NCBI GenBank assembly: GCA_964016885.1
Contig: OZ024753.1
Span: 33,356,001 to 33,420,000 of the forward strand
Origin: Eledone cirrhosa
Taxonomy: Eukaryota
Length of the DNA stretch: 64,000 bases
Direction of reading: 5' to 3'
Positions within the stretch are counted from its first letter, which is position 1, and every line of letters starts with the position of its first letter. The notes beneath the pieces are model-generated. The model made no database searches and was not told the DNA's origin. It saw only the letters and a program-made list of their open reading frames with translations. The position numbers were made by a program, and so were the translations under genes. Below, one piece after another: positions 6,452-63,370 of the stretch.

Positions 6452-6491
6452 TTCGCTGATGAGATTTAATAAGACTGAAATATATCCAGAA
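6452..6491 (+). ncRNA. minimal type I hammerhead ribozyme motif (partly decayed)
   Basis: TTCG-CTGATGA-GATTTAATAAGACT-GAAA-TATA-TC-CAGAA: conserved core, palindromic 4-nt stem III, UC cleavage site; stems I and II are imperfect. Confidence 0.6.
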
Positions 6492-16590: not shown

Positions 16591-17365
16591 ACTGGAAGTA
16601 AAACAAATGAATAAACAGACATACAGGTAGTGACTAAAAAATAAATTGTAATATGTTTGGGAGTGTTTGAAGATGAAATGAACAAAAAGTCTTCAAAACA
16701 GATTAATATTCTGAATTATAAAACACATACATACACAAAAGACAACAAAAAAAACCCCCCACACACACAAAAAAGCCACACACACACATACACAAAGATA
16801 ACAAAAAAAACCCCACACACACACACAAAATGGAAAGACAAAAAAATATGATTTATTCATGAAAGATGTAGAAAAAGAATTCTAACAACAATATAACATA
16901 TTTCATCTTCAGACTCTTGATAAACCATTTAGAATTAATGATAATATTTTAAATGTTAATAGATATTTTGATTATGAAGAAAAAAAATGTAGAAATTGCT
17001 GTGTGATTCTATCTATATTTCTGTGTTTTGTACAACTTTGTTTCAAAAGATATAGCTACTATAATGGAGGAGTGGAAAATTGCAGCAGTATAACTAATCG
17101 AAAGTTAGTTAAATATATTCTTTGCTTTGTCATGTTTCAGAGTTCAAATTTCCCACTGGATATTGAATTGCAATCTTTAATCATATTGATGAGATGAAAG
17201 TGAATCTAATTAATAATAAGTACTAATTGAATTCAATGTAATAAACCAAACATATATTTACTGTAGTAGTAGTAGTGGTGGTGGTGGTGGTAGATGTAAT
17301 GACAAAGGTAATGTTGAATACAGAGGGACTACTCTAAATAAATGAGTGTGTATATATATATATAT

Positions 17366-17678
17366 AATATAAGATCAAAAGATGGTTGAAAGAGTTCCAA
17401 GTATTTTATTATGCGCATTTCAAAAACAAATATCATCATGGGATGATATCTGCGTTCTCATCAGATAAAATAGGGAGACATGATATGAAGCTTAAAAAAC
17501 ACTTGTGAGCAGTGAAGTTTTAAATCATCCCATGATGATATTTGTTTTTTAAATGCGCATAATAAAATGCTTGGAACTCTTTTAACCATCTTTTGATCTT
17601 ATATTATTTATACTCCAGTCCTATAAACTGTAGAGTGCTACTTATCCGATATTTGCATTGCTTTATTGTGCTACCTCC

Positions 17679-17682
<4 letters not shown>
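17366..17682 (+). mobile_element. hammerhead-bearing fold-back element, family 1 (Penelope pLTR/retrozyme-like)
   Basis: Inverted arms (AAGATCAAAAGATGG...CCATCTTTTGATCTT) flanked by (TA)n on both sides; homologous to 44676-45100 and 62975-63256. Confidence 0.8.
17402..17472 (-). ncRNA. type I hammerhead ribozyme, family 1 (intact)
   Basis: Minus strand: TATTTTAT-CTGATGA-GAACGCAGATATCATCCCATGATGATATTTGTTTTT-GAAA-TGCGCA-TA-ATAAAATA; perfect 8-bp stem I, long stem II, palindromic stem III. Confidence 0.85.
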
Positions 17683-17716
<34 letters not shown>

Positions 17717-17852
17717 GGTTAAACAAGGTTCAATGAATAAATCAATGAATAAAGTTTCACAATAGATTAGAAGCACTCCACAGTGAGGGTTTCTGGAGTT
17801 ATTAATATTACTTAAAAATATTAATAAATATAGACATTCATGTGATCAAATA

Positions 17853-17918
17853 TATTTTATGATACATATTTCAGAAGCACTGAGCTATTTCAACAGTATG
17901 TACTCATCAGATAAAATA
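17853..17918 (-). ncRNA. type I hammerhead ribozyme, family 2
   Basis: TATTTTAT-CTGATGA-GTACATACTGTTGAAATAGCTCAGTGCTTCT-GAAA-TATGTA-TC-ATAAAATA. Confidence 0.8.
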
Positions 17919-18016
17919 AATTGCTGCTTGACATACCTTGACTATGTTGATGGTTATAATTCAGTCATGGCTGAATTATAACCATCACCATAGTTAAGGT
18001 ATGTCAAGCACCAACT

Positions 18017-18082
18017 TATTTTATCTGATAAGGATGTACTGTTGAAATAGCTCAGTGCCTCTGAAATATGTATAATAAAATA
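18017..18082 (+). ncRNA. hammerhead motif, family 2, opposite arm (core mutated to CTGATAA)
   Basis: TATTTTAT-CTGATAA-GGATGTACTG...CAGTGCCTCT-GAAA-TATGTA-TA-ATAAAATA. Confidence 0.65.
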
Positions 18083-18159
18083 TATTTGATCACATCAATG
18101 TCTATATTTATTAATATATATATATATTTATATTTATATATATATATATTTATATATAT

Positions 18160-18981: not shown

Positions 18982-19019
18982 TATGCTGACGAGGTCTAAC
19001 AGACAGAAACATGTACACA
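18982..19019 (+). ncRNA. minimal type I hammerhead ribozyme motif
   Basis: TATG-CTGACGA-GGTCTAACAGACA-GAAA-CATG-TA-CACA; CATG palindromic stem III, as in Penelope minimal hammerheads. Confidence 0.7.
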
Positions 19020-19379
19020 GTTGCCCCTTGCTTCCAACAAAAATGATATCCTTCTATTCATAGGATGTTAAATTATACAGGATTTTATTCCTGATTGTTT
19101 TAAATTACCATCTCTTCTCTTGGAGCACCTAATAATAGCCTTTGGGTGTTTTGTTCATCATCTCCCATAAATAGGAATAATTTTAAAAAATAATGAATTT
19201 AATTTATACAACATTCATTATTAACCGTTGGATTATATAGCATATTTAACACAGGATCATCAAAAATTGAAAGTGGTTTATCTATGTGAGATGTTTGCAG
19301 GGCGATGTTTAACAAACTTGAACCACAGTAGAATATACGTTGAAAAAACACACCGTCACTGTATGAATTCACATGCACA

Positions 19380-19722
19380 GTCGTTACATTGACGACTGTA
19401 TCGGAGCCACGACCCTCACCCGAGTACAGCTCGACTCCTTTCTCTCCTTCTTCTGCTCCTTCCACCCCTCCCTCCACTTCACCACCTCTATCTCCACCAC
19501 CCACGTCCACTTCTTAGACATCTCCGTCGCCTTCGACCCCTCCCACCACTCCTTCAAACCCACCGACTCCCTCTCTTACCTCGACTTCACCTCTTCCCAC
19601 CCCACCCACACTAAACTCTCCATTCCCTACTCCCAACTTCTCAGGATCCGCCGCCTCTGTAGCCGTGATGCTGACTTCGAGTCCCAGGCCCTTTCCCTAG
19701 TCAGCCATTTCATCCGCAGAGG

Positions 19723-19726
<4 letters not shown>
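19380..19726 (+). pseudogene. Penelope-like element reverse transcriptase fragment
   Basis: RYIDD catalytic motif, FHPSLHFT, FLD, KPTD..YLDFTSSHP..K.SIPYSQLLRIRRLCS...F.RRGY, the characteristic PLE RT C-terminal/thumb region; runs into (TA)n. Confidence 0.9.
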
Positions 19727-19964: not shown

Positions 19965-21297
19965 TCATCATCATCATCATCGTTTAACGTCCATTTTCCA
20001 CGCTAGCATGGGTCTGGACGGGAATTATCCCACTTGAGGCAAGATTGGTTGTCTTGCTCAGGACTGTCTGGCGGGTTTTCTACGGCTGGGTGCCCTTCCC
20101 AATACCAACCACGTTTACAGTGTATACTGGGAGGTTTTTACCGTGTTACCTACACGGCCACATGACAGCGTGGACTGTGTGTTTTTTTTGTTGTGACACC
20201 TACACGACCTCATTTGTTTCGGACTGGATGTTGTGGTACCAACATAACTTCGCATTTAAGGGGGTGGTGTGGATGGGGTGGAGGTAGTGGGACGGGGGTG
20301 TATTTTGTTAGAGGTGCCTACTGACTGTAGGCAAGGAGGGTCTTCTGTATAACTGTGTAGTGCCAAAGATCTCAGTCCAGTGACACTGTCTTGGAGAGGT
20401 GTAAGTGTGTGAGGTTGGAATTTATCAAGTCATCCCAGGTTTTTCTGAGTCTGCCTACTCCGTGGCTACCGTCTATTTTTATCGCCCTGAACTTTTTTAT
20501 ACAGCTGTCGTCTTTCATGCGCATCACGTGACCGTACCAACGTAGTCTTCTTTCGAGTAAACAACATCTGATCCCTCTTATTCCTAATTTCTCCCTTAGT
20601 TCGTTTATGCTTTGCCGTTCACGCATATTACTATTACACATCCAGCGGAGCATGCAAGCTTCGTTCCTCTCCAGTCTGTGTATATCCTCTGCACACAATG
20701 CCCAGGTCTCACTGCCATGTAACATTGCTGTTCATATGCAAGCATCATACAGCCTGCCTTTCATTTTTAGAGAGAACCCTTTAGCGGCCAATAGTGGTAT
20801 AAGCTCTCTGAACTTTTTCCATCCCGTTCTGACTCTAGCTTCTGTACTTTCAGAGCACCCTCCCCCACTGCTGATTTTGTCACCCAGGTAACGGAAGCTG
20901 TCCACTATTTCTATAGAACCATCTGTGCAATGGAATGAGCTAGTATTCTGTGGGCACTTGCTGCTACTTATTGCACCAGAGCACCGGCCACATATAAAAT
21001 CTATATTCTTAGTTAGCTTACCTGTGATCCCACTACATCTTTTATGCACCCATACTTTGCATTTGGAACATAAAATGGAGTTTCTGCCTACTCCTTTCCT
21101 ACACACTGAGCATGGCCATTTCCCAGATGGGACCGGTGCCCTATTTTCCTTCCTACAAACTAGAACTTTAGTCTTAGACCAGTTAGCTTTAAGGCCTTTT
21201 GATTCTAGGCCATGCTTCCATGTTTGGAATTTCTTCTCTAGTTCCGTCATTGATTCAGCTATGAGCGTTAGATCATCTGCGTATAGGAGTTCCCATG
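19965..21297 (-). mobile_element. RTE-group LINE, 5'-truncated at WELLYADD
   Basis: ORFs 20732-21358 and 20372-20725 are split by a CGA>TGA stop; highly similar to 33475-34445; has the 3' UTR and (GAT)n tail. Confidence 0.93.
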
Positions 21298-22164
21298 TGC
21301 GTGTATTTCTGAACATTGATATACACACACATATATATATATATATATACTCACTCACAGATATATACTCCTACAGAAACAAGTACACAGATAGGCTTAG
21401 ACTACGTTACTTTAAGATAGTTGGAAATAAAATTTCAAGTAAAGCAATTTGTGTGTGTGTGTGTTGTGTTTTTTGTTTGTTTGTTTTTTTCTTTTAATAC
21501 AGAATGTAATCGAAATTGGCAGCAAACTTGAGCAACACCAATTTTACACTAGAAAATCACTTTGGTGTTTCCATAAAGTCAACAAATAAGCGATAGTAAG
21601 AACATGTAATTATTTACTTAATAGAAAATTGAGAAAAAAAAATCTTGAGGAAAATAATACAAAATACAAAAGAAAAAAAAAAGAGAAAATTAGTCTTAAT
21701 CTTTATATTTTTTGTTATCACTTTTATTCAAATTTATTGTCTTTTATTTTTTATTTACCTCATCCCGGCTTTTTCTTTATCTAAAAGTAAAAATTGATGG
21801 CAAATCCCCCAAAAAAGTACACCGAGAAAATGAGAAATTATGTATTTTTTCTAAGTATTGATAAAAAATAAATAGATGAATAAAAAATAAAGCAAAAGCT
21901 ATGCAGCATCATTATCTTCCACAATCCTTTCTAGGAAAGGGGAAATAGTGATGGCAGAATTCTTTGAGAATATGACAAAATGCTTTGTTGAATTTGTTCT
22001 GCTTCTCCGAGTTCAAATCCTGCTACTGAGGTCAACTATGTCTTTCATCCTTTCAGATGAAAGATTGGCAGAATTGTTAGAGCTTTACATGAGATGCCTT
22101 GAGGTAAATATTCTAGCACTTTAATGTTCTGTGTTCCCTGATGAGCAGACTTAATCTGTTACCC

Positions 22165-24603: not shown

Positions 24604-25166
24604 GTTTCAGTGAACACTCAAAACCGATTATATTGTATTATATTACATTATATTTGTGATAGTATTAAGTCATCCAGACAAGCAGTCAATTTTACTGCTG
24701 TTTATTGATGGAAACAGGAATGGTTATTGAATTGAGTAGAAATTGAATACATACATATGAAGAGGGGGAGGATCTTAACTACAATCACTAGAAAGCAGAA
24801 AGGTTGGGTTGGGTTGGATTGGATTGGAAAAATGTAAGAAACGCTTGGAGGTGAGACAGAAAAACTCCAAACTAAACATTGCGTGCCAATAAATTTAAGT
24901 GCAAAGATTAAAGCTAATAAGATAAGTAATAAATAAGTAGATAACATAGAAATAAATAAATATATCATATATATATCATTATCATCAGTGTTTAATATCA
25001 GTTTTTCCTCACGTGCATAGGTTAAAGAGATTGTCATGTGATAAATAGGCGAAACTTCAGAGTAACAAAACTCTCTTTTTAGCTTTAATATAAATGAATA
25101 TTAAAACTACTTCGGTATTGAGTACTCCTTTCTCTCAGCCGTCAACCACTTATGATTATATATATA

Positions 25167-25345
25167 TATAGGAAAATGTTTAACCCCGACGGCAGAGCTC
25201 AAGCTGTTTCAATGGCTAGTTCTGGAGTCCAGAAATAGCCGTCAAAACGGCTTGAGCTCTGCCGTCGGGGTTAAACATTTTCTTATTACCCACTCTACTA
25301 CCCTAAGTATTGAGTACTCTGGTGTGTTATAGTCCATCTGGTTCC
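25167..25345 (+). mobile_element. fold-back element family 3 with 3' half of a hammerhead
   Basis: Palindrome of about 120 bp at 25167-25286 plus tail, flanked by (TA)n; homologous to 62764-62960; contains (G)AAA-CGGC-TTGAGCTCT-GCCG-TC. Confidence 0.75.
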
Positions 25346-26000
25346 TTACCACACCTCCTTCATTATATATATATATATATATATATGGGGGGATGGTATG
25401 TGTGTGTGTGTTGTTTCGTTCTTTTAATTTTAGATGATGATGTGTTAACCATATCAATTTCACCAGTCTGCAAGAGTCTAACCGTTTATGATTAATGCCC
25501 CTCCCCCCTTCACTAATTGATGAACAAAATTCTTTTTTTATTGTTTTCTTCTTCATCCATCCACATATTCCTGAATGTGCCATGGGAGCAGAGTCCTCAG
25601 TCTCTAGAGGGTCCTATCAGGAGCACCAGTCTCCAAATAATCTGTCAGGGTCTCAGAATCAAACCAACCAAGACTTTGAATGTTAATCAATGATCTTGCA
25701 TGTGCTCTAGCTCTCTTGATAGTTAGTTTTACCTTTAAATTCTGTCCACCAATTCTTTTCTTAGACAGTTTTATTGTATTTATATTAAACATCAATGCTG
25801 TATGTATCTAGTTTAGAATACATACATGATATCCCTGCATGTCATAAGAAGTGGCTAAAATGTTTGACACCAGGAAGGGTGTCTAGCTATAAAATATAAC
25901 CTCCAAAAGAATTCCAAGATGAGTATGAAATCTGTTTTTTAAAAAATGGTCAAAATGACCTGAAAATGCATGTTATATAAAATTATAATTATATACCATT

Positions 26001-26695: not shown

Positions 26696-26850
26696 GGCAG
26701 TAAATTGGCAAAGTCGTTGGGGGCATTGGATAAAATAGGCCTCAAGATGTGTTTTTAATTCACTGCCCTCTGAGTTCAAACCCTGCCAAGATGAACTTTG
26801 CCTTTCATTCCTTTGGGTTTAATAAATAAAGTATTAGTTCAGGGGCAGAT
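26696..26850 (+). mobile_element. SINE (family A-related) that seeds the satellite
   Basis: GGCAGTAAATTGGCAAAG head and GAGTTCAAACCC B-box run directly into the first satellite unit. Confidence 0.7.
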
Positions 26851-29800
26851 ATCCTGCCTAGATCAACTTTGCCTTTCATTCCTTTGGGTTTAATAAATAA
26901 AGTATTAGTTCAGGGGCAGATATCCTGCCTAGATCAACTTTGCATTTTAATCCTTTGGGTTTAATAAATAAAGTATTAGTTCAGGGGCAGATATCCTGCC
27001 TAGATCAACTTTGCATTTTAATCCTTTGGGTTTAATAAATAAAGTATTAGTTCAGGGGCAGATAACCTGCCTAGATTAACTTTGCATTTTAATCCTTTGG
27101 GTTTAATAAATAAAGTATTAGTTCAGGGGCAGATATCCTGCCTAGAATAACTTTGCCTTTCATTCCTTTGGGGTTAATAAATAAAGTATTAGTTCAGGGG
27201 CAGATAACCTGCCTAGATTAACTTTGCATTTTAATCCTTTGGGTTTAATAAATAAAGTATTAGTTCAGGGGCAGATATCCTGCCTAGATCAACTTTGCAT
27301 TTTAATCCTTTGGGTTTAATAAATAAAGTATTAGTTCAGGGGCAGATAACCTGCCTAGATTAACTTTGCATTTTAATCCTTTGGGTTTAATAAATAAAGT
27401 ATTAGTTCAGGGGCAGATATCCTGCCTAGATCAACTTTGCCTTTCATTCCTTTGGGTTTAATAAATAAAGTATTAGTTCAGGGGCAGATAACCTGCCTAG
27501 ATTAACTTTGCCTTTCATTCCTTTGGGTTTAATAAATAAAGTATTAGTTCAGGGGCAGATATCCTGCCTAGATCAACTTTGCCTTTCATTCCTTTGGGTT
27601 TAATAAATAAAGTATTAGTTCAGGGGCAGATATCCTGCCTAGATCAACTTTGCATTTTAATCCTTTGGGGTTAATAAATAAAGTATTAGTTCAGGGGCAG
27701 ATAACCTGCCTAGATTAACTTTGCCTTTCATTCCTTTGGGTTTAATAAATAAAGTATTAGTTCAGGGGCAGATAACCTGCCTAGATTAACTTTGCCTTTC
27801 ATTCCTTTGGGTTTAATAAATAAAGTATTAGTTCAGGGGCAGATAACCTGCCTAGATCAACTTTGCATTTTAATCCTTTGGGGTTAATAAATAAAGTATT
27901 AGTTCAGGGGCAGATATCCTGCCTAGATCAACTTTGCATTTTAATCCTTTGGGTTTAATAAATAAAGTATTAGTTCAGGGGCAGATATCCTGCCTAGATT
28001 AACTTTGCATTTTAATCCTTTGGGTTTAATAAATAAAGTATTAGTTCAGGGGCAGATATCCTGCCTAGATCAACTTTGCCTTTCATTCCTTTGGGTTTAA
28101 TAAATAAAGTATTAGTTCAGGGGCAGATATCCTGCCTAGATCAACTTTGCCTTTCATTCCTTTGGGTTTAATAAATAAAGTATTAGTTCAGGGGCAGATA
28201 TCCTGCCTAGATTAACTTTGCATTTTAATCCTTTGGGTTTAATAAATAAAGTATTAGTTCAGGGGCAGATAACCTGCCTAGATTAACTTTGCCTTTCATT
28301 CCTTTGGGTTTAATAAATAAAGTATTAGTTCAGGGGCAGATATCCTGCCTAGATCAACTTTGCATTTTAATCCTTTGGGGTTAATAAATAAAGTATTAGT
28401 TCAGGGGCAGATAACCTGCCTAGATTAACTTTGCCTTTCATTCCTTTGGGGTTAATAAATAAAGTATTAGTTCAGGGGCAGATATCCTGCCTAGATTAAC
28501 TTTGCCTTTCATTCCTTTGGGTTTAATAAATAAAGTATTAGTTCAGGGGCAGATATCCTGCCTAGATTAACTTTGCCTTTCATTCCTTTGGGTTTAATAA
28601 ATAAAGTATTAGTTCAGGGGCAGATAACCTGCCTAGATCAACTTTGCATTTTAATCCTTTGGGGTTAATAAATAAAGTATTAGTTCAGGGGCAGATATCC
28701 TGCCTAGATCAACTTTGCATTTTAATCCTTTGGGTTTAATAAATAAAGTATTAGTTCAGGGGCAGATATCCTGCCTAGATTAACTTTGCATTTTAATCCT
28801 TTGGGTTTAATAAATAAAGTATTAGTTCAGGGGCAGATATCCTGCCTAGATCAACTTTGCCTTTCATTCCTTTGGGTTTAATAAATAAAGTATTAGTTCA
28901 GGGGCAGATATCCTGCCTAGATCAACTTTGCATTTTAATCCTTTGGGTTTAATAAATAAAGTATTAGTTCAGGGGCAGATATCCTGCCTAGATTAACTTT
29001 GCATTTTAATCCTTTGGGTTTAATAAATAAAGTATTAGTTCAGGGGCAGATATCCTGCCTAGATCAACTTTGCCTTTCATTCCTTTGGGTTTAATAAATA
29101 AAGTATTAGTTCAGGGGCAGATATCCTGCCTAGATTAACTTTGCATTTTAATCCTTTGGGGTTAATAAATAAAGTATTAGTTCAGGGGCAGATATCCTGC
29201 CTAGATCAACTTTGCCTTTCATTCCTTTGGGTTTAATAAATAAAGTATTAGTTCAGGGGCAGATATCCTGCCTAGATCAACTTTGCCTTTCATTCCTTTG
29301 GGTTTAATAAATAAAGTATTAGTTCAGGGGCAGATATCCTGCCTAGATTAACTTTGCATTTTAATCCTTTGGGTTTAATAAATAAAGTATTAGTTCAGGG
29401 GCAGATAACCTGCCTAGATTAACTTTGCCTTTCATTCCTTTGGGTTTAATAAATAAAGTATTAGTTCAGGGGCAGATATCCTGCCTAGATCAACTTTGCA
29501 TTTTAATCCTTTGGGGTTAATAAATAAAGTATTAGTTCAGGGGCAGATAACCTGCCTAGATTAACTTTGCCTTTCATTCCTTTGGGGTTAATAAATAAAG
29601 TATTAGTTCAGGGGCAGATATCCTGCCTAGATTAACTTTGCCTTTCATTCCTTTGGGTTTAATAAATAAAGTATTAGTTCAGGGGCAGATATCCTGCCTA
29701 GATTAACTTTGCCTTTCATTCCTTTGGGTTTAATAAATAAAGTATTAGTTCAGGGGCAGATATCCTGCCTAGATTAACTTTGCCTTTCATTCCTTTGGGG

Positions 29801-31737
29801 TTAATAAATAAAGTATTAGTTCAGGGGCAGATATCCTGCCTAGATCAACTTTGCATTTTAATCCTTTGGGGTTAATAAATAAAGTATTAGTTCAGGGGCA
29901 GATATCCTGCCTAGATCAACTTTGCATTTTAATCCTTTGGGGTTAATAAATAAAGTATTAGTTCAGGGGCAGATAACCTGCCAAGATCAACTTTGCATTT
30001 TAATCCTTTGGGGTTAATAAATAAAGTATTAGTTCAGGGGCAGATAACCTGCCTAGATTAACTTTGCATTTTAATCCTTTGGGGTTAATAAATAAAGTAT
30101 TAGTTCAGGGGCAGATAACCTGCCTAGAATAACTTTGCCTTTCATTCCTTTGGGGTTAATAAATAAAGTATTAGTTCAGGGGCAGATAACCTGCCTAGAA
30201 TAACTTTGCCTTTCATTCCTTTGGGGTTAATAAATAAAGTATTAGTTCAGGGGCAGATATCCTGCCTAGATTAACTTTGCCTTTCATTCCTTTGGGTTTA
30301 ATAAATAAAGTATTAGTTCAGGGGCAGATATCCTGCCTAGATCAACTTTGCCTTTCATTCCTTTGGGTTTAATAAATAAAGTATTAGTTCAGGGGCAGAT
30401 AACCTGCCTAGATTAACTTTGCCTTTCATTCCTTTGGGTTTAATAAATAAAGTATTAGTTCAGGGGCAGATATCCTGCCTAGATTAACTTTGCCTTTCAT
30501 TCCTTTGGGTTTAATAAATAAAGTATTAGTTCAGGGGCAGATAACCTGCCTAGATTAACTTTGCATTTTAATCCTTTGGGTTTAATAAATAAAGTATTAG
30601 TTCAGGGGCAGATAACCTGCCTAGATTAACTTTGCATTTTAATCCTTTGGGTTTAATAAATAAAGTATTAGTTCAGGGGCAGATAACCTGCCTAGATTAA
30701 CTTTGCATTTTAATCCTTTGGGTTTAATAAATAAAGTATTAGTTCAGGGGCAGATAACCTGCCTAGATTAACTTTGCATTTTAATCCTTTGGGGTTAATA
30801 AATAAAGTATTAGTTCAGGGGCAGATAACCTGCCTAGAATAACTTTGCCTTTCATTCCTTTGGGTTTAATAAATAAAGTATTAGTTCAGGGGCAGATATC
30901 CTGCCTAGATTAACTTTGCATTTTAATCCTTTGGGGTTAATAAATAAAGTATTAGTTCAGGGGCAGATAACCTGCCTAGATTAACTTTGCATTTTAATCC
31001 TTTGGGTTTAATAAATAAAGTATTAGTTCAGGGGCAGATAACCTGCCTAGATTAACTTTGCATTTTAATCCTTTGGGGTTAATAAATAAAGTATTAGTTC
31101 AGGGGCAGATAACCTGCCTAGATTAACTTTGCATTTTAATCCTTTGGGTTTAATAAATAAAGTATTAGTTCAGGGGCAGATAACCTGCCTAGATTAACTT
31201 TGCATTTTAATCCTTTGGGTTTAATAAATAAAGTATTAGTTCAGGGGCAGATAACCTGCCTAGATTAACTTTGCATTTTAATCCTTTGGGGTTAATAAAT
31301 AAAGTATTAGTTCAGGGGCAGATAACCTGCCTAGAATAACTTTGCCTTTCATTCCTTTGGGTTTAATAAATAAAGTATTAGTTCAGGGGCAGATATCCTG
31401 CCTAGATTAACTTTGCATTTTAATCCTTTGGGGTTAATAAATAAAGTATTAGTTCAGGGGCAGATAACCTGCCTAGATTAACTTTGCATTTTAATCCTTT
31501 GGGGTTAATAAATAAAGTATTAGTTCAGGGGCAGATATCCTGCCTAGATTAACTTTGCCTTTCATTCCTTTGGGGTTAATAAATAAAGTATTAGTTCAGG
31601 GGCAGATAACCTGCCTAGATTAACTTTGCATTTTAATCCTTTGGGTTTAATAAATAAAGTATTAGTTCAGGGGCAGATAACCTGCCTAGATTAACTTTGC
31701 ATTTTAATCCTTTGGGTTTAATAAATAAAGTATTAGC
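26782..31737. repeat. 71-bp tandem satellite, about 70 copies
   Basis: Unit TTCAGGGGCAGATATCCTGCCTAGATCAACTTTGCCTTTCATTCCTTTGGGTTTAATAAATAAAGTATTAG; period measured from 26838 to 26909; no spacers. Confidence 0.98.
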
Positions 31738-31927
31738 CCAGAGGCAGTTGATTGATGGAATTGTTAAAGAGTAGGATGGGATAATTGCAGTATCTGGCCC
31801 AATGTGTATGACTTGTTTGGGTTTTACTTTAGTAATTAATAGAAATACTCACCAGAAAATTAATTAATGTCTCGTTAACATGCAATACTTAAGACAACTA
31901 TTTACATATGAATGAAAAATAAGATAC

Positions 31928-33424: not shown

Positions 33425-35935
33425 GTGTATTTTGTTAGAGATGCCTACTGGCTGTAGTAGGTTTTACTTTGTATTTAGGTAAGGCGGGTCTTCTCTATTA
33501 CTGAGTACCGCCAAAGGTCTCGGTCCAGTGACATTGTCTTGGAGAGGTGTAAGTGTGTGAGGTCAGAATTTATCAGCTCGTCCCAGGTTTTTCTGGGTCT
33601 GCCTACTCCGTAGCTACCGTCTATCTTTATTGCCCTGCACTTTGTTATACAGCTGTCGTCTTTCATGCGTATCACGTGACCATACCAACGTAGCCTTCTC
33701 TCGAGTAAACAACATCTGATCCCTCTTATTTCTAATTTTTTCCTTAGTTCGCTTATGCTTTGCCGTTCACGTATGTTACTATTACACATCCAGCGGAGCA
33801 TGCAAGCTTCGTTCCTCTCTAGTCTGCGTATATCCTCTGCACACAATGCCCAGGTCTCACTGCCATGCAACATTGCTGTTCGTATGCAGGCATCGTACAA
33901 CCTGCCTTTCATTCTTAGGGAGAACCCTTTAGCGGCTAATAGTGGTATAAGCTCTCTGAACTTCTTCCAACCAGTTCTGACTCTAGCTACTGTACTTTCA
34001 GAGCACCCTCCCCAACTGCTGATTTTGTCGCCCAGGTAACGGAAGCTGTCCACTATTTCTATAGAACCCTCTGCGCAATTGAAAGAGCTAGTATTTTGTG
34101 GGCACTTGCTGCTACTTATTGCACCAGAGCACCGGCCACATGTAAAATCTATGTTCTTAGTTAGCTTACCTGTGATCCCACTACATCTTTTATGCACCCA
34201 TACTTTGCATTTGGGACATAAAATGAAGTTTCTACCTACGCCTTTCCTACACACTGAGCATGGCCATTTCCCGGAAGGGACCGGCGCCTTATTTTCTTTC
34301 CTACAAACTAGAACTTTAGTCTTAGCCAGGTTAATTTTAAGGCCTTTTGATTCTACGCCGTGCTTCCATGTTTGGAATTTCTTCTCTAGCTCGGCCATTG
34401 ATTCAGCTATGAGCGTTAGATCGTCTGCGTATAGGAGTTCCCATGGGCAGCCGGTCTTGAACTTCTCTGTTATAGCCTGAAGGGCAATAATAAATAGGAG
34501 GGGGCTAAGAACAGAGCCCTGATGGACACCAACCTTTACGCTAAACTCTTCACTATATTCGTTGTTAATTCTAACCTTGCTGACTGTTTCTTTATACATG
34601 GCTTGTATAGCTCTGACAAGCCATTCGTCAACACCTAGTTTTCTAAGAGCCCACCAGATAATGGAACGGGGGACTCTGTCGAAGGCTTTCTCCAAGTCAA
34701 CAAAAGCTAAGTATAGGGGTTTACTTTTAGCTAGGTACTTCTCCTGTAGTTGTCGTACAATGAAAAGAGCGTCTGTGGTACTTTTGCCTGACACAAACCC
34801 GAACTGCATTTCATCTAGATCAATTCTCTCTCATTAGTTGCGCTATTACTTTTTCCGTGACCTTCATGACCTGGTCGATTAATTTAATGCCTCTATAGTT
34901 ACACCTATCTAGGGCATCTCCTTTACCCTTGTAACAGTTAATGATGATGCTGCTACGCCAGTCCTTCGGAACAACCCCATTCTGTATGACTTGGTTTACT
35001 ATCCGGGAGACCATGGTGTGTCCCACCGTTCCAGAGGCTTTCAGCATCTCAGCAACTATTTCCAAAGGCCCAGCCGCCTTTCCCGTCTTCATATCTTTGA
35101 TTGCCTTACTTATTATACTCCCTTCAACTAACACTGCTGGTCCCTCTATTGGGTCGATGTGGGGGAGACTGTCTTTCTCCCATTTATTCTCGTCATTTAG
35201 AAGCCTTTCGTAGTGACTCTTCCATGCTACCTTCTTATCAGCATCAGTGATGGCAAGTACGCCTTCATCATTAAGTACACACTTCTCCCCGACAATATCA
35301 CGGTTTTCCTTGACACATTGCCTAGCAATCCTGAACACCTCCCGTTTTTGGTCCGCGCGTTGTAGAACATGCTTGAACTTTCTTTCCTCTGCTTCCCTTC
35401 TTGCGAAGTACACTTGTCTTCTAGCTTCCCTCCTGGCCACTTGATAGTCTTCTCTACTTACCCCATCCCGCCATACTTTCCAAGCCTGCTTTTTGGCCTT
35501 AATTGACTCCTCCACCTTACTGTTCCACCACCATGTTACTCTCCTACCTACCGGCCTGCTCCAGCCACAGACTTCGTCTGCCACCGTCAGCAGGTTTGCT
35601 TTCAGGAATTCCCACTGATCCTCTATATTATACGACTAATTGCTCTTCCTTACTGTCGAAAGCATCAAGTAATATGCTTTGAAATTTATTTCTGGCTGTG
35701 GGGTCCTTTAGCTTCCATATTTTTCTCCTGAGGATAGTCCTCTTCTGCTGTCTAGTACGTCTCGTCCTGACTATGAGGTCGCTAATTATCAGTCTATGTT
35801 GGGAGGTGCATTCTTCATGGGGGAGGGATTTAGTGTTAACAACAGACACTCTGTCACGTCTTCTGGTAAGGATATAATCTACCTGGCTTGTGTGTTCCCC
35901 CGATCTATAGGTGATCAAGTGATTGTCTCGTTTTT
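33425..35935 (-). mobile_element. RTE-group (RTE-X-like) LINE, 5'-truncated, about 2.5 kb
   Basis: Collinear ORF pieces 35918-35628 (end of the AP endonuclease: TY.SG...SQVDYIL...SQHRL), 35584-34820 and 34809-33475; one stop and one frameshift; the 5' side runs into a microsatellite. Confidence 0.95.
33475..34809 (-). CDS. reverse transcriptase of the RTE-group LINE, with inserted PHD finger (frameshift-isolated part)
   Basis: QFGF, FVDLEKAFD, GVHQGSVLSPLLF, LLYADD, FRYLG, RRLRWYGHV, GRPRKTW motifs. Confidence 0.9.
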   Translation of the reverse strand: MQFGFVSGKSTTDALFIVRQLQEKYLAKSKPLYLAFVDLEKAFDRVPRSIIWWALRKLGVDEWLVRAIQAMYKETVSKVRINNEYSEEFSVKVGVHQGSVLSPLLFIIALQAITEKFKTGCPWELLYADDLTLIAESMAELEKKFQTWKHGVESKGLKINLAKTKVLVCRKENKAPVPSGKWPCSVCRKGVGRNFILCPKCKVWVHKRCSGITGKLTKNIDFTCGRCSGAISSSKCPQNTSSFNCAEGSIEIVDSFRYLGDKISSWGGCSESTVARVRTGWKKFRELIPLLAAKGFSLRMKGRLYDACIRTAMLHGSETWALCAEDIRRLERNEACMLRWMCNSNIRERQSISELRKKLEIRGIRCCLLERRLRWYGHVIRMKDDSCITKCRAIKIDGSYGVGRPRKTWDELINSDLTHLHLSKTMSLDRDLWRYSVIEKTRLT

Positions 35936-35969
35936 TGAAGTTAGTGTTACAGATAGTTAGGTTTGTGTG

Positions 35970-36013
<44 letters not shown>

Positions 36014-37628
36014 TTTATGTGTGTGTGTATCTAAGTATATCTGTTCGTCTGTCTATCTCACTCTCTCTCTCTTTATATATATATGTGTGTGTGTGTTTGT
36101 ACACATGCATACAGACAATATATTACATATTCCAGGCATCACCTTACAACATGTCAATGTCTTTAACACACCAAAGAATATGAATAACCAAAGTGAAAAT
36201 ATAATTAAGATACGCTGCAAATATTCCGTGACACAAATAATTGACCAAAATAATGACAAGTATGATAATATTTGACGAGAAATACCTGGAAATTATTTCA
36301 CCTGGATTTGATGAGAAAAGTTATTATTGGGGAAGTTTTCACCTTAGAATGATGAGATAAATTCTAATTAAAGAAACTTTCACCTTGATATGAAAAAAGA
36401 ATTATTATTACCTGTTTGTGACCATATTTCAAATGAAATATATTGATTAAGTGTTTGATTAATTTTCAAATTGATCGAACATTTGTGAGTTGGTTTACTG
36501 AAATAGATACTTTTTTTTTAAATTATTATTTAAAATCATCATCATTGTTTTAATATCAGCCTTCCCTGCTAGCAAGGGTTGGCCATGTCTAAATAGGCCA
36601 AATCAGTAGTTAAGTGGGGCTACTGACCATCCAGGCAGGCCAGATGTTTGCATTTCTCTTACATATGGTCTCACATTCTCCCGAGTGCACAAGTGAGGGT
36701 TTTATCTCTTTAACACAACTGAAGGGTCCTCCTCAACCTGTTTTTGGCAAGATTTCTACACCTGGATGCCCTTCCTGTGGAGACTAAATCCATTCATTGG
36801 CCTAATTCCACTGAAAGGCTAAGTTAAAACAACTTTGGAAACGTATTTGAAAGTATTTAGTAATATAATTTACTTCAGTTTCATTATCATGTGTCTATTT
36901 TCTGTGCTTGCATAGGTTAGGTGAATTGTCATATGCTGAGGCCTGGCAGGTAGGTCAGACAACTGTGTCTTGGTCATATGTTCAATTTTGGCATGGTTTT
37001 TACAACTGGATGCCCTCTCTAATGCCAACTATTTCATGGCATGTACTAGTTTTGTTTACAAGTGGTACCACTACAACCACCGTATGTTTGGAATATAATT
37101 TTATTTTATTTCTATATTTATTTCAGTAATTTCTAGACATACATTCTTATGAAGCTCACTTTGAACCGATTTCTGAATTACATGCAACAATTCTGAGGGA
37201 ATTACCATTCTTGGGTGAATAGAAGAGTGTTAGCATATTTTAAAGGTAAATCATCCAAAATATTGTGAATTCATGTGATTGCATATTTTAAGTATTGATA
37301 AACCTGGACAAAGTAGGTTACTGCAGCCAGTCAGTGAAACTTGTAGTATGAGTTACTGTCTTTCTCCATCATTATTGTTTAACATGCATTTTCCATGCAA
37401 GCATGGGTTATACAACTTGTCCCATTGTGAAACAAGTCAAGTAAGGTGACCATGCCTTGCTCATACAGAACTGTTTCTGACTTGGCTTCTATAGCTGGAT
37501 GCCCTTCCTAACACAAACCACATATACAGCATGAACTGGGTATTTTATCATGGCACCCGAACAACCACACACTGGGTAATTGCTGGCCTTGTGCCAAAAG
37601 TAGAAACAATTATTATGTATATATATAT

Positions 37629-61050: not shown

Positions 61051-61600
61051 GCATTTATATATTTATATCTATTTACCACCTGTTAACCCAGCACTTACTG
61101 TAACGTGGTTGGTGTTAGGATGACATACATCTGTAGAAACTATGCCCAAAAGGATTAAAAAGAGCCTCCAATTAAACTATTGCTAATGCCAGGAAAATGC
61201 ACTAGTCGCGAACGAATACCACCAAAATTACCCATTAATACTGTCTTACATTTGTATCTCTCTGCTTGTACAATAAATTATATCAAGCAGGTCTAGTGGG
61301 AATCAGGTATAAGCAGCATCTCGGTGTGTTAGATATTTAACACATTCTCATGATGAATGAAATTACTAAGGACAGGTATTTTTTGCATTGTATTCTCCTT
61401 TTGTATGATTATGTGTTTGTACAAACATAAATATATGAGCTGCAATACATTACGTTGCTTAAGAAAGAAATGACTCAGTCTGTGGACAATGAAAAGAATA
61501 ACAGTAATATGATTTAAATCATGATTTATATATTTTGTAACAGAAATACACTTCAAAAACATCTAAAAAGTATATATATATGTGTGTGTGTGTATGTATG

Positions 61601-61635
<35 letters not shown>

Positions 61636-61648
61636 GTATATCATTATC

Positions 61649-62162
61649 GTTATACTTTGGGAGGGTCATGTTGCCAATAAGAAACACACGCACCAGTTGC
61701 TTTCACTTCAATTTATTATATATTTATAAATTTATAAATTTACAAATTTACAAACCCATAAATTTCTGGTTGGTTGGTTGGTTCCACAACCAGATAGTTG
61801 TTTATATATATAGTCATAGTCCTCCCGTCACACACTCTGTGACCTCCTCAGTGACTGGGGATTCCTTTCTTCGTTTCTGTGCCCCTCCCTTCTTCTATCT
61901 CACGCCATTTTGTTTCAGAAGAAGGGAGGGGCACAGAAACGAAGAAAGGAATCCCCAGTCACTGAGGAGGTCACAGAGTGTGTGACGGGAGGACTATGAC
62001 TATATATAAACAACTATCTGGTTGTGGAACTAACCAACCAACCAGAAATTTATGGGTTTGTAAATTTGTAAATTTATAAATTTATAAATATATAATAAAT
62101 TGAAGTGAAAGCAACTGGTGCGTGTGTTTCTTATTGGCAACATGACCCTCCCAAAGTATAAC
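61649..62162. repeat. near-perfect long inverted repeat (arms about 247 bp, 20-nt loop)
   Basis: 61649-61896 is the reverse complement of 61917-62162, apart from about one mismatch and one TA indel. Confidence 0.95.
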
Positions 62163-62710
62163 AATATCGGTTTCAACACACGATTTCAGATAAAGAATCT
62201 TGCTAAACAAATTCAGAAACGAAATATATCATTATCATTTAACATCTAATGTTCTATGCTTGTATGTGTTAGAAACACTTCATTTTTGAATTTGTTTCGC
62301 AAGATTCTTATCTGAAAATGTATGTTGAAACAGATATTGTTCTACTTTGGGAGAGTCATACTACCAATAACAACAAAATAGCCATTCGATTATTAAACTA
62401 ACTGGCAGGGTGTTTATAATAAATTGAAGTGAAAATCCAACAGATGTGTGTTTTTATAGGCAGCATGGCCCTCAAAGTATAATATATATATATACATACA
62501 TACAAACGTTCCATAGCTAAGGGGCTTTTGGGGAAACTTGTTGAATAATCTAACAGTTTTGTTAGTTATTGACTCTAAATATGTTAATATAATCATGTTT
62601 TTAATTTCTTTCTTAGTCTTGTAATGGTGGTGAAAAAGCGCGAGTTAATAATAATATACATGAACAGTATATATAGTTAAGCTTCTTCAATCTGAAACTG
62701 CTAAGACAGG

Positions 62711-62763
<53 letters not shown>

Positions 62764-62766
<3 letters not shown>

Positions 62767-62960
62767 GAAGGAGTTGTGGTAAGGAATCAGATGGACCATA
62801 ACGCACCAAAGTACTCAATACTTAGGGTAGTAGAGTGGGTAATAGGAAAATGTATGACCTCGACGGCAGAGCTCAAGCCGTTTCGACGGCTATTTCTGGA
62901 TATAGTCCAGAAATAGCCGTTGAAACGGCTTGAGCTCTGCTGTCAGGGTCATACATTTTC
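62764..62960 (-). mobile_element. fold-back element family 3 with 3' half of a hammerhead
   Basis: Inverted homologue of 25167-25345; the minus strand has GCCGTC-GAAA-CGGCTTGAGCTCTGCCG-TC-GAGGTC. Confidence 0.75.
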
Positions 62961-62974
62961 ACATATACAGGGAT

Positions 62975-63256
62975 GTATCATGAGATGATATTTGCGTTCT
63001 CATCAGATAAAATAGGGAGACATATGAAGCTTAAAAAACACTTGCGAGCAGTGAAGTGTTAAATCAACATCTGATGAGAACGCAAATATCATCCCATGAT
63101 GATATTTGTTTTTGAAATGCGCATAATAAAATACATGGAACTCTTTTAACCATCTTTTGGTTTTATATTATTTATACTCCAGTCCTATAAACTGTTGAGT
63201 TCTACTTATCCGATATGTGCATTGCTTTATTGTGCTACAATAAAACTCACCTCTAC
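62975..63256 (+). mobile_element. hammerhead-bearing fold-back element, family 1
   Basis: Same sequence as the copies at 17366 and 44676, with a partial inverted arm at 62975-63070. Confidence 0.8.
63069..63133 (+). ncRNA. hammerhead core, family 1 (5' strand of stem I cut to 2 nt)
   Basis: AT-CTGATGA-GAACGCAAATATCATCCCATGATGATATTTGTTTTT-GAAA-TGCGCA-TA-ATAAAATA. Confidence 0.75.
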
Positions 63257-63267
63257 ATATATATGTC

Positions 63268-63370
63268 TGTGTGTGTGTGTGTGTGTGGTGTGTGTGTGTG
63301 TGTGTGGTGTGTGTGTGTGTGGTGTGTGTGTGTGTGTGTGGTGGTGTGTGTGTGTGTGTGTGTGTGTGTG
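63268..63370. repeat. (TG)n microsatellite
   Basis: Directly visible. Confidence 0.95.

Follow-up and report, generated by a model that had tools for sequence, protein, structure and literature searches.

How two short palindromes, each carrying what appears to be half of a hammerhead ribozyme in both of its arms, came to be made is the question raised by the locus at 25167 in Eledone cirrhosa. The window, the whole 64,000-nt stretch that was analysed, is AT-rich eukaryotic DNA with long (TA)n tracts, a 71-bp satellite, LINE RT fragments, and several palindromic repeats. The two palindromes (copies A and B) constitute family 3, next to two other palindromic families with hammerheads (families 1 and 2). 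The family-3 loci are very probably ordinary inverted stubs of Penelope-like elements (PLEs). On balance, they are likely dead 5′-truncated insertions of a hammerhead-bearing PLE, in which two stalled cDNAs were likely joined head to head inside a likely helix II arm. Papers are cited by their PMC numbers, in each case for the sections drawn on here.

The two palindromic loci

The palindromes that had been claimed at 25167 and 62764 are both real. Copy A spans 25168-25286 (~119 bp, 89% arm identity) and copy B about 62842-62960 (~119 bp, 91% arm identity across 62846-62960), with folding z scores of −18.6 and −20.9, respectively, against 200 dinucleotide shuffles each. The extent first given for copy A, 25167..25345, contains the palindrome and stops short on the right, where the copy reaches 25363. 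The two copies are 89% identical across 226 nt and share a plan of 59-bp mirrored arms, of which one bears a 77-nt tail, between TA-repeat ends, the whole insert being <200 bp. Copy B is on the minus strand and presents tail, long arm, TATAG, and short arm in rising coordinates. The fold-back string proposed for both copies, GGCTATTTCTGGA-loop-TCCAGAAATAGCC, is exact in copy B with TATAG (62901-62905) as the spacer; copy A departs from it by one mismatch in the left arm and has a single G (25227) as spacer. The coordinates are collected in Table 1.

Table 1. Positions of the family-3 features in the window
Feature	Position	Strand	Remarks
(TA)7 target, tail-less end of copy A	25157..25170		sequence
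Copy A short tail-less arm	25168..25226	−	GAAA 25210-25207, TC site 25188, end ATTTTCCTAT into (TA)n
Copy A junction	25227..25227		single G between mirrored CTGGA/TCCAG
Copy A long arm, paired portion	25228..25286	+	
Copy A putative hammerhead 3′ half	25244..25271	+	decayed core AAAA, helix III CGGC/GCCG, GAGCTC loop, TC site 25266, GGGGT helix I strand
Copy A 77-nt tail, one arm only	25287..25363	+	
Copy A bulged tail hairpin	25292..25318	+	CTC-TAC/GTA-TT-GAG, then TACT
(TA)n target, tail end of copy A	25364..25386		sequence
(AT)24 target, tail end of copy B	62716..62764		
Copy B 77-nt tail	62765..62841	−	bulged hairpin 62836-62810
Copy B long arm	62842..62900	−	intact GAAA 62884-62881, helix III, TC site 62862, GAGGT 62861-62857
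Copy B junction TATAG	62901..62905		mirror and non-inverted copies part here
Copy B short tail-less arm	62906..62960	+	ends ATTTTC, then ACATATA and family-1 element

An assembly fold-back artefact was ruled out, as the arms differ from each other, 7 of the 9 private arm differences in copies A and B are CpG transitions, and short reads and contigs cross the centres. With one CpG column as the exception, arm variants follow the copy rather than the side; two alignment columns are the same in both arms of one copy and differ between copies A and B.

Both copies have neighbours of related kinds. Directly left of copy A and in the same (TA)n, 25030-25160 (+) holds the decayed remains of a hammerhead-like motif, with TTGT/ACAA as helix I and GAAACT..AGTA, and after them 13 nt that match the family-3 tail hairpin; it is likely the 3′ end of another PLE family. 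Copy B is fused via ACATATA and short filler to a family-1 inverted unit (62961-63258), whose left arm is cut inside helix II. The fusion is either a nested insertion or one composite event. No ORF combining RT and GIY-YIG adjoins copy A or copy B.

The putative half-hammerhead in the arms

Each arm of the two copies contains a GAAA-helix III-TC half-hammerhead. GAAA is intact in three of the four arms, including the long arm of copy B (62884-62881), for which it had been noted; the long arm of copy A (25244) has AAAA, a CpG change. CGGC/GCCG and TC, read earlier from the letters, are exact in both long arms. The expected upstream CUGANGA was reported missing, and none of the four arms indeed has a CTGANGA of its own (≤1 mismatch, 150 nt upstream of each GAAA). 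The similar words near the arms are one with a single mismatch in the flank of copy A and two that belong to the family-1 element next to copy B. A type II or III hammerhead was ruled out, helix III being closed and the tail having no CTGANGA downstream.

The half-hammerhead pattern turned up in 39 of 5000 shuffled versions of the 136-nt arm, but it is common across the AT-rich window, with 25 sites versus 5-18 in 20 shuffles. At gathering scores, Rfam returned no match, and none of its 67 weak matches in 61500-63300 is a hammerhead. The miRNA look-alikes that Rfam gave in this region are sub-threshold only.

Variation within the family offers a second line of evidence. Among the 40 variants listed (of 110), helix III and the TC site vary at CpG positions only, and one GRGGT position shifts to a majority G. 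In the same set, loop III varies, with one common change giving TGAGCTCA, a perfect palindrome, and variation climbs immediately past GGGGT. In a sister subfamily (1863 reads, 194 contigs), GCCGTC-GGGGT and GAGCTC are retained and the other loop letters differ. PLE hammerheads typically have a palindromic loop III, according to the part of PMC4209133 considered. With helix III, TC, and GGGGT preserved and the changes in the loop falling around GAGCTC, in the sister subfamily as well, the 3′ half appears to behave like a conserved hammerhead half, with support that is good but indirect. The window copies would be unable to self-cleave.

Non-inverted copies and a likely native helix II

Four sequencing runs were aligned to 62759-62985, yielding 18737 contigs (X1), 21123 reads (X8), 44 matches (X5), and 283 contigs (X6). 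They show family 3 to be of high copy number, with mirrored and non-mirrored copies. The non-inverted copies whose search the original prediction had recommended thus exist, in the run data. Loose ends lie behind 62900 in 1247 of 21123 reads (X8), 129 of 18737 contigs (X1), and 1 of 44 (X5). Among the 23 loose-end rows listed (of 477), 50 X1 contigs and one X5 contig have loose ends before 62903, and the loose ends agree on one native upstream stretch that is unlike the mirror. Loose ends were read to 30 letters and the native upstream sequence to about 45 nt; one junction insert in X8 (19 reads, 4 starts) extends it to CGGCTATTT, the complement of AAATAGCCG.

The native upstream motif has no match within the window at ≤3 mismatches. 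Exact-pattern scans of metagenome contigs, viral contigs, and prokaryote genomes had no hits. Family-3 motifs were not found in the supplement of PMC8557442, where line breaks can hide matches, or in that of PMC13282606, which contains no repeat library. What run X6, from a related organism, has in common with family 3 is mainly the proximal tail with its bulged hairpin (62794-62850), the sequence on either side being different.

In the non-inverted copies, GGCTATTT lies ~33 nt upstream of AAATAGCC, with the full strand present in one record. Two X5 contigs contain only the last 2 and 4 letters of the GGCTATTT strand, one of them with a G where T would pair. GGCTATTT and AAATAGCC, paired by eye, are thus likely the strands of a native helix II, whose closing G-C pair does not appear in the letters read. 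The arm so drawn has a helix of at least 9 bp and a 33-nt top, which is unrelated in sequence to the strands that it separates (about 33 nt in native copies) and harbors a second, 7-bp hairpin (GGCTAAA/TTTAGTC). The expected CTGANGA of the non-inverted copies would lie just beyond the ~45 nt read upstream, in which neither it nor the 5′ strand of helix I occurs in native position. One X1 contig insert has CTGATGA in element sense beside the arm, in an odd rearranged context. It was not counted as the native core, as its upstream letters pair poorly with GGGGT and it resembles a mutated native segment.

Tails, bulged hairpins, and other hammerhead elements

Two 3′ ends occur in family 3, i.e., the end of the tail or (TA)n directly before 62842 (3273 reads, 206 contigs). 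The same asymmetry is seen in all five window loci of families 1, 2, and 3 with both ends intact, in which one arm has a tail and the other has none. A bulged hairpin immediately beyond the tail-less end is found in all family-1 and family-3 tails, in the family-2 tail, and in an isolated tail at 42304. A descriptor of this hairpin has 7 sites in the window against 0-1 in 200 shuffles, of which only two are independent because it was built from families 1 and 3 and Hydra ends. Folding z values of the tail hairpins are weak (−1.0 to −1.3), and plain alignment of the tails does not bring the hairpins into register. Between families, a compensatory change converts TAC/GTA to CAG/CTG. In the listed portion of the PMC8557442 supplement, visual inspection finds the pattern CTC-NNN/N′N′N′-NN-GAG followed by YRCT at the 3′ end of three elements, Hydra-2_Amil, Hydra-2_Ajap, and Hydra-1_Crog (1 mismatch). 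It is not visible in the 3′ ends listed there for Hydra-1_Obim and Hydra-1_Ajap, the latter having a similar hairpin word at its 5′ end.

Family 1 (17359-17684, 44664-45104, and 62977-63258) has a complete type I hammerhead with an 8-bp helix I, a perfect helix II of 11-12 bp, and a palindromic TGCGCA helix III. All three loci have one arm that begins at a common 5′ site, and one arm starts inside helix II. Its junctions pair unit positions 1-6 with 1, 67, and 93. At locus 17359, 87 nt of 5′ sequence in the tail-less arm are absent from the tailed one, and each arm has sequence of its own. Family 2 (17712-18117) is a symmetric 300-bp palindrome whose axis is CATG. Both of its arms contain a hammerhead, one of them with a mutated core, and the left arm also bears a tail that has the bulged hairpin. 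The isolated tail (42304-42230, minus strand) sits inside a long (TA)-rich tract.

An ordinary palindromic MITE with a chance half-hammerhead would be in keeping with the TA context, the lack of any CTGANGA in the four window arms, the frequency of the half pattern in the window, and the silence of Rfam. Such an origin is nevertheless extremely improbable. The inverted repeat is not terminal, with the 77-nt tail lying outside of it; copies are variably 5′-truncated and often non-inverted; and the tail hairpin is common to families with complete hammerheads. Inverted repeats at both termini and a uniform length, which define MITEs, are not what is seen in family 3; a high-copy family with non-inverted members, it is not a MITE.

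The window contains further repeats and motifs. Overlapping palindromes at 61645-62166 (522 bp, 20-nt spacer) and 62128-62373 (about 245 bp, older) have hammerhead-like remnants. A C-rich Penelope-type RT fragment at 19367-19723 (+) ends in (TA)n, has PF26215 as its Atlas look-alike (0.95), and by eye resembles Neptune; the 119-aa fragment has no match in Pfam. A separate hammerhead-like motif lies 380 nt upstream of it, at 18986. CTGATGA..GAAA motifs are also present at 6456 and at 48901, the latter following a CTACCTCCTTTAT word that resembles tail ends. About 70 copies of a 71-bp unit (26782-31747, 96% matches) are related to part of the window's common SINE-like repeat. Two LINE-type RT copies (33475-36014, minus strand, and 20298-21370) are 90% alike over 1 kb and have a PHD-finger-like insert.

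Junctions and the origin of the mirror

Any palindrome centre folds; therefore, the label "stem II" that the central hairpin had received is an interpretation. Its proximal 8 bp were rightly guessed, but CTGGA/TCCAG is a product of the mirror and not native. Nor is the axis at the native helix II loop. Its place is within the distal hairpin, on the 3′ strand, some 10 nt past the native apex in the 3′ direction and next to a short quasi-palindrome, CTAA..TTAG, in which 8 of 9 positions are self-complementary. What holds of the proposed tie between palindrome and stem II is that the junction falls inside the helix II arm, as a result of which the 5′ half is lost; centring on the loop does not hold. 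The CUGANGA half would have gone through truncation rather than through replacement by design with the mirror of the 3′ half.

The original prediction attributed the palindromes to a nascent cDNA that snapped back at stem II. A cDNA that copies both helix II strands and folds through them would produce a palindrome centred on the helix II loop, and it must keep the 33-nt native top. This is very unlikely to have happened, even with a likely native helix II that has the junction inside its arm and with one X8 record (62820 to 62899) that could be such a product after two further deletions. The native top is kept in neither window copy, a clean one is found in none of the 12 inserts listed (of 14), and family 1 is centred on helix II in none of its three loci.

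Breakpoints were tabulated as had been suggested, and the junction partners vary from copy to copy among the 15 joints listed (of 33). In ten of these 15, one side falls within 62899-62904 and the partners take nine different positions in 62808-62852; between the two sides, one of these ten joints carries 33 native letters and two carry unidentified letters. Joints labelled "opposite strand" may be tandem or inverted, and the pile-up at 62899-62904 is partly an edge effect because the reference ends there. The centre itself is 4 letters shorter in 26 X1 contigs (copy-A type) and 6 shorter in 8 contigs and 8 reads, and substitutions affect three of its positions in 62, 55, and 34 contigs. Further axes fall on TCGA and CTAG in the run data and on TATA and CATG in the window, all of which are loop-less self-complementary words. 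The depth ratio across the centre was dropped as a gauge of the mirrored fraction, as mapping favours the long arm and hairpins may be under-sequenced.

These variants bear on whether the palindrome arose only a few times, with the palindromic stub now spreading as a unit from master copies. Nearly the same axis and ends in both window copies and the recurrence of the copy-A centre would agree with such spread. It is quite unlikely, however, given at least five centre variants, the nine partner breakpoints among the joints listed, and arms that track the copy and not the side, bar one CpG column.

Alternatively, a single cDNA could stall in distal helix II, self-prime on the micro-palindrome CTA-AAT-TAG (3 bp), copy back, and stop before the tail hairpin, with the tip being trimmed. 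Variants common to both arms of a copy, symmetric centres that differ by small losses, and the confinement of the tail to one arm in 5/5 loci are all consistent with this course, and the portion of PMC3846280 used here reads junction palindromes so, on an antisense template. Its probability is nonetheless rather low. The full micro-palindrome is kept in neither of the two window centres, both arms of locus 17359 have unique sequence, and the loop-less axes suit the annealing of two ends better.

The favoured origin, at slightly less than an even chance, is that two stalled cDNAs were joined head to head; it ranks above both the micro-hairpin and the helix II snap-back. One argument for two cDNAs is that each arm of locus 17359 holds sequence that the other lacks, which copying of one cDNA cannot give. 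This asymmetry is a single case from another family, and a later central deletion could account for it. Furthermore, arm variants shared within a copy fit snap-back at least as well as they fit two cDNAs.

Proposed mechanism and significance

Joining of two cDNAs can be cast as a sequence of steps. A Penelope-type RT/endonuclease, perhaps of the Hydra clade, would cut (TA)n and prime synthesis at either side of the cut, in one case at the end of the tail and in the other at a site just ahead of the tail hairpin. Twin priming is known for L1. Both cDNAs would tend to stall past the GC-rich base of helix II, upon entering the distal 7-bp hairpin. Joining of their ends, in the self-complementary CTAA..TTAG stretch, would then involve small losses or filler. 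In this course, the CUGANGA half would be lost through truncation.

It is tentatively proposed that the helix II arm is a hotspot of truncation and joining, which destroys the ribozyme, and that a bulged tail hairpin, conserved as far as coral, sea cucumber, and copepod Hydra elements, is a cis signal that fixes the tail/no-tail asymmetry; both may well prove otherwise. If they are right, thousands of stubs form a ready record for distinguishing two cDNAs from self-priming in PLE inverted ends. As the family is abundant, the junction site recurs, and the tail hairpin is shared, tabulating both arms per copy could test the mechanism of PLE inversion. Stubs of this kind are easily misfiled as MITEs or microRNA-like hairpins. 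Self-priming of PLE inverted insertions has already been proposed in the pages of PMC3846280 relied on here.

Comparison with known systems

The family-3 palindromes are mostly of a known kind, since truncated PLE ends that stand head to head and have a single tail are familiar. Inverted 5′-truncated PLE copies and one-sided tails are described in the consulted parts of PMC8557442 and PMC8969392. In the literature outside most subscription journals, and within the sections covered, no paper was found that ties PLE junctions to helix II or names the tail hairpin; Repbase or Dfam may already hold the family.

A close counterpart is the inverted pLTR plus tail unit of endonuclease-bearing PLEs (PMC3846280, PMC8557442, as excerpted), which likewise has a head-to-head 5′-truncated copy, a junction palindrome, a one-ended tail, and an AT-rich or (TA)n target. 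Family 3 shows the features of such an insertion unit, namely, an inverted 5′-truncated head-to-head copy, a tail at one end only, and two alternative 3′ ends. It departs from the unit in that the insert has no ORF, is <200 bp, and is truncated through the hammerhead region. The tail is also longer, 77 nt versus 30-40 nt in the relevant part of PMC8557442.

The reading as Penelope-like inverted insertions follows from the one-armed tail, (TA)n targeting, and a bulged tail hairpin like that of Hydra-clade elements. With the Hydra clade as presented in PMC8557442, family 3 has in common (TA)n insertion, a trait not unique to this clade, and a hammerhead, in family 3 a putative one, close to the 3′ end. 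By eye, three of the Hydra elements also have its bulged hairpin. In contrast to family 3, the Hydra hammerheads listed have much shorter helices II and III, and family 3 is known here from its non-coding parts alone.

Metazoan PLE hammerheads (PMC4209133, in the sections cited) resemble family 3 in the expected type I layout, the long helix II that is likely in family 3, and the palindromic loop III. There, motifs that occur in pairs on opposite strands, at distances of 100-700 bp, are taken to be truncated PLEs. Unlike those hammerheads, only the 3′ half survives in the window copies; helix III of family 3 comprises 4 bp plus an A-U pair with a 9-nt loop, and the helix II arm would be about 55 nt.

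For the Poseidon element PAc in vitro, the part of PMC11167929 consulted reports extension of both target strands and two RT start sites that bound the tail. Family 3 is comparable in its two proposed start sites, the proposed cutting and extension of both target strands, and the AT-rich target. PAc Poseidon belongs to a different clade, and inverted junctions are not explained in that part of the work.

Finally, non-LTR retrozymes (PMC7229834; bioRxiv 10.64898/2026.07.22.740005, both in excerpt) are also short, non-coding, and PLE-related, with type I hammerheads. They form head-to-tail tandem repeats that hold complete ribozymes. Neither window copy has this arrangement and there is no tandem array at either locus; the family-3 loci are, instead, head-to-head stubs carrying half a ribozyme.
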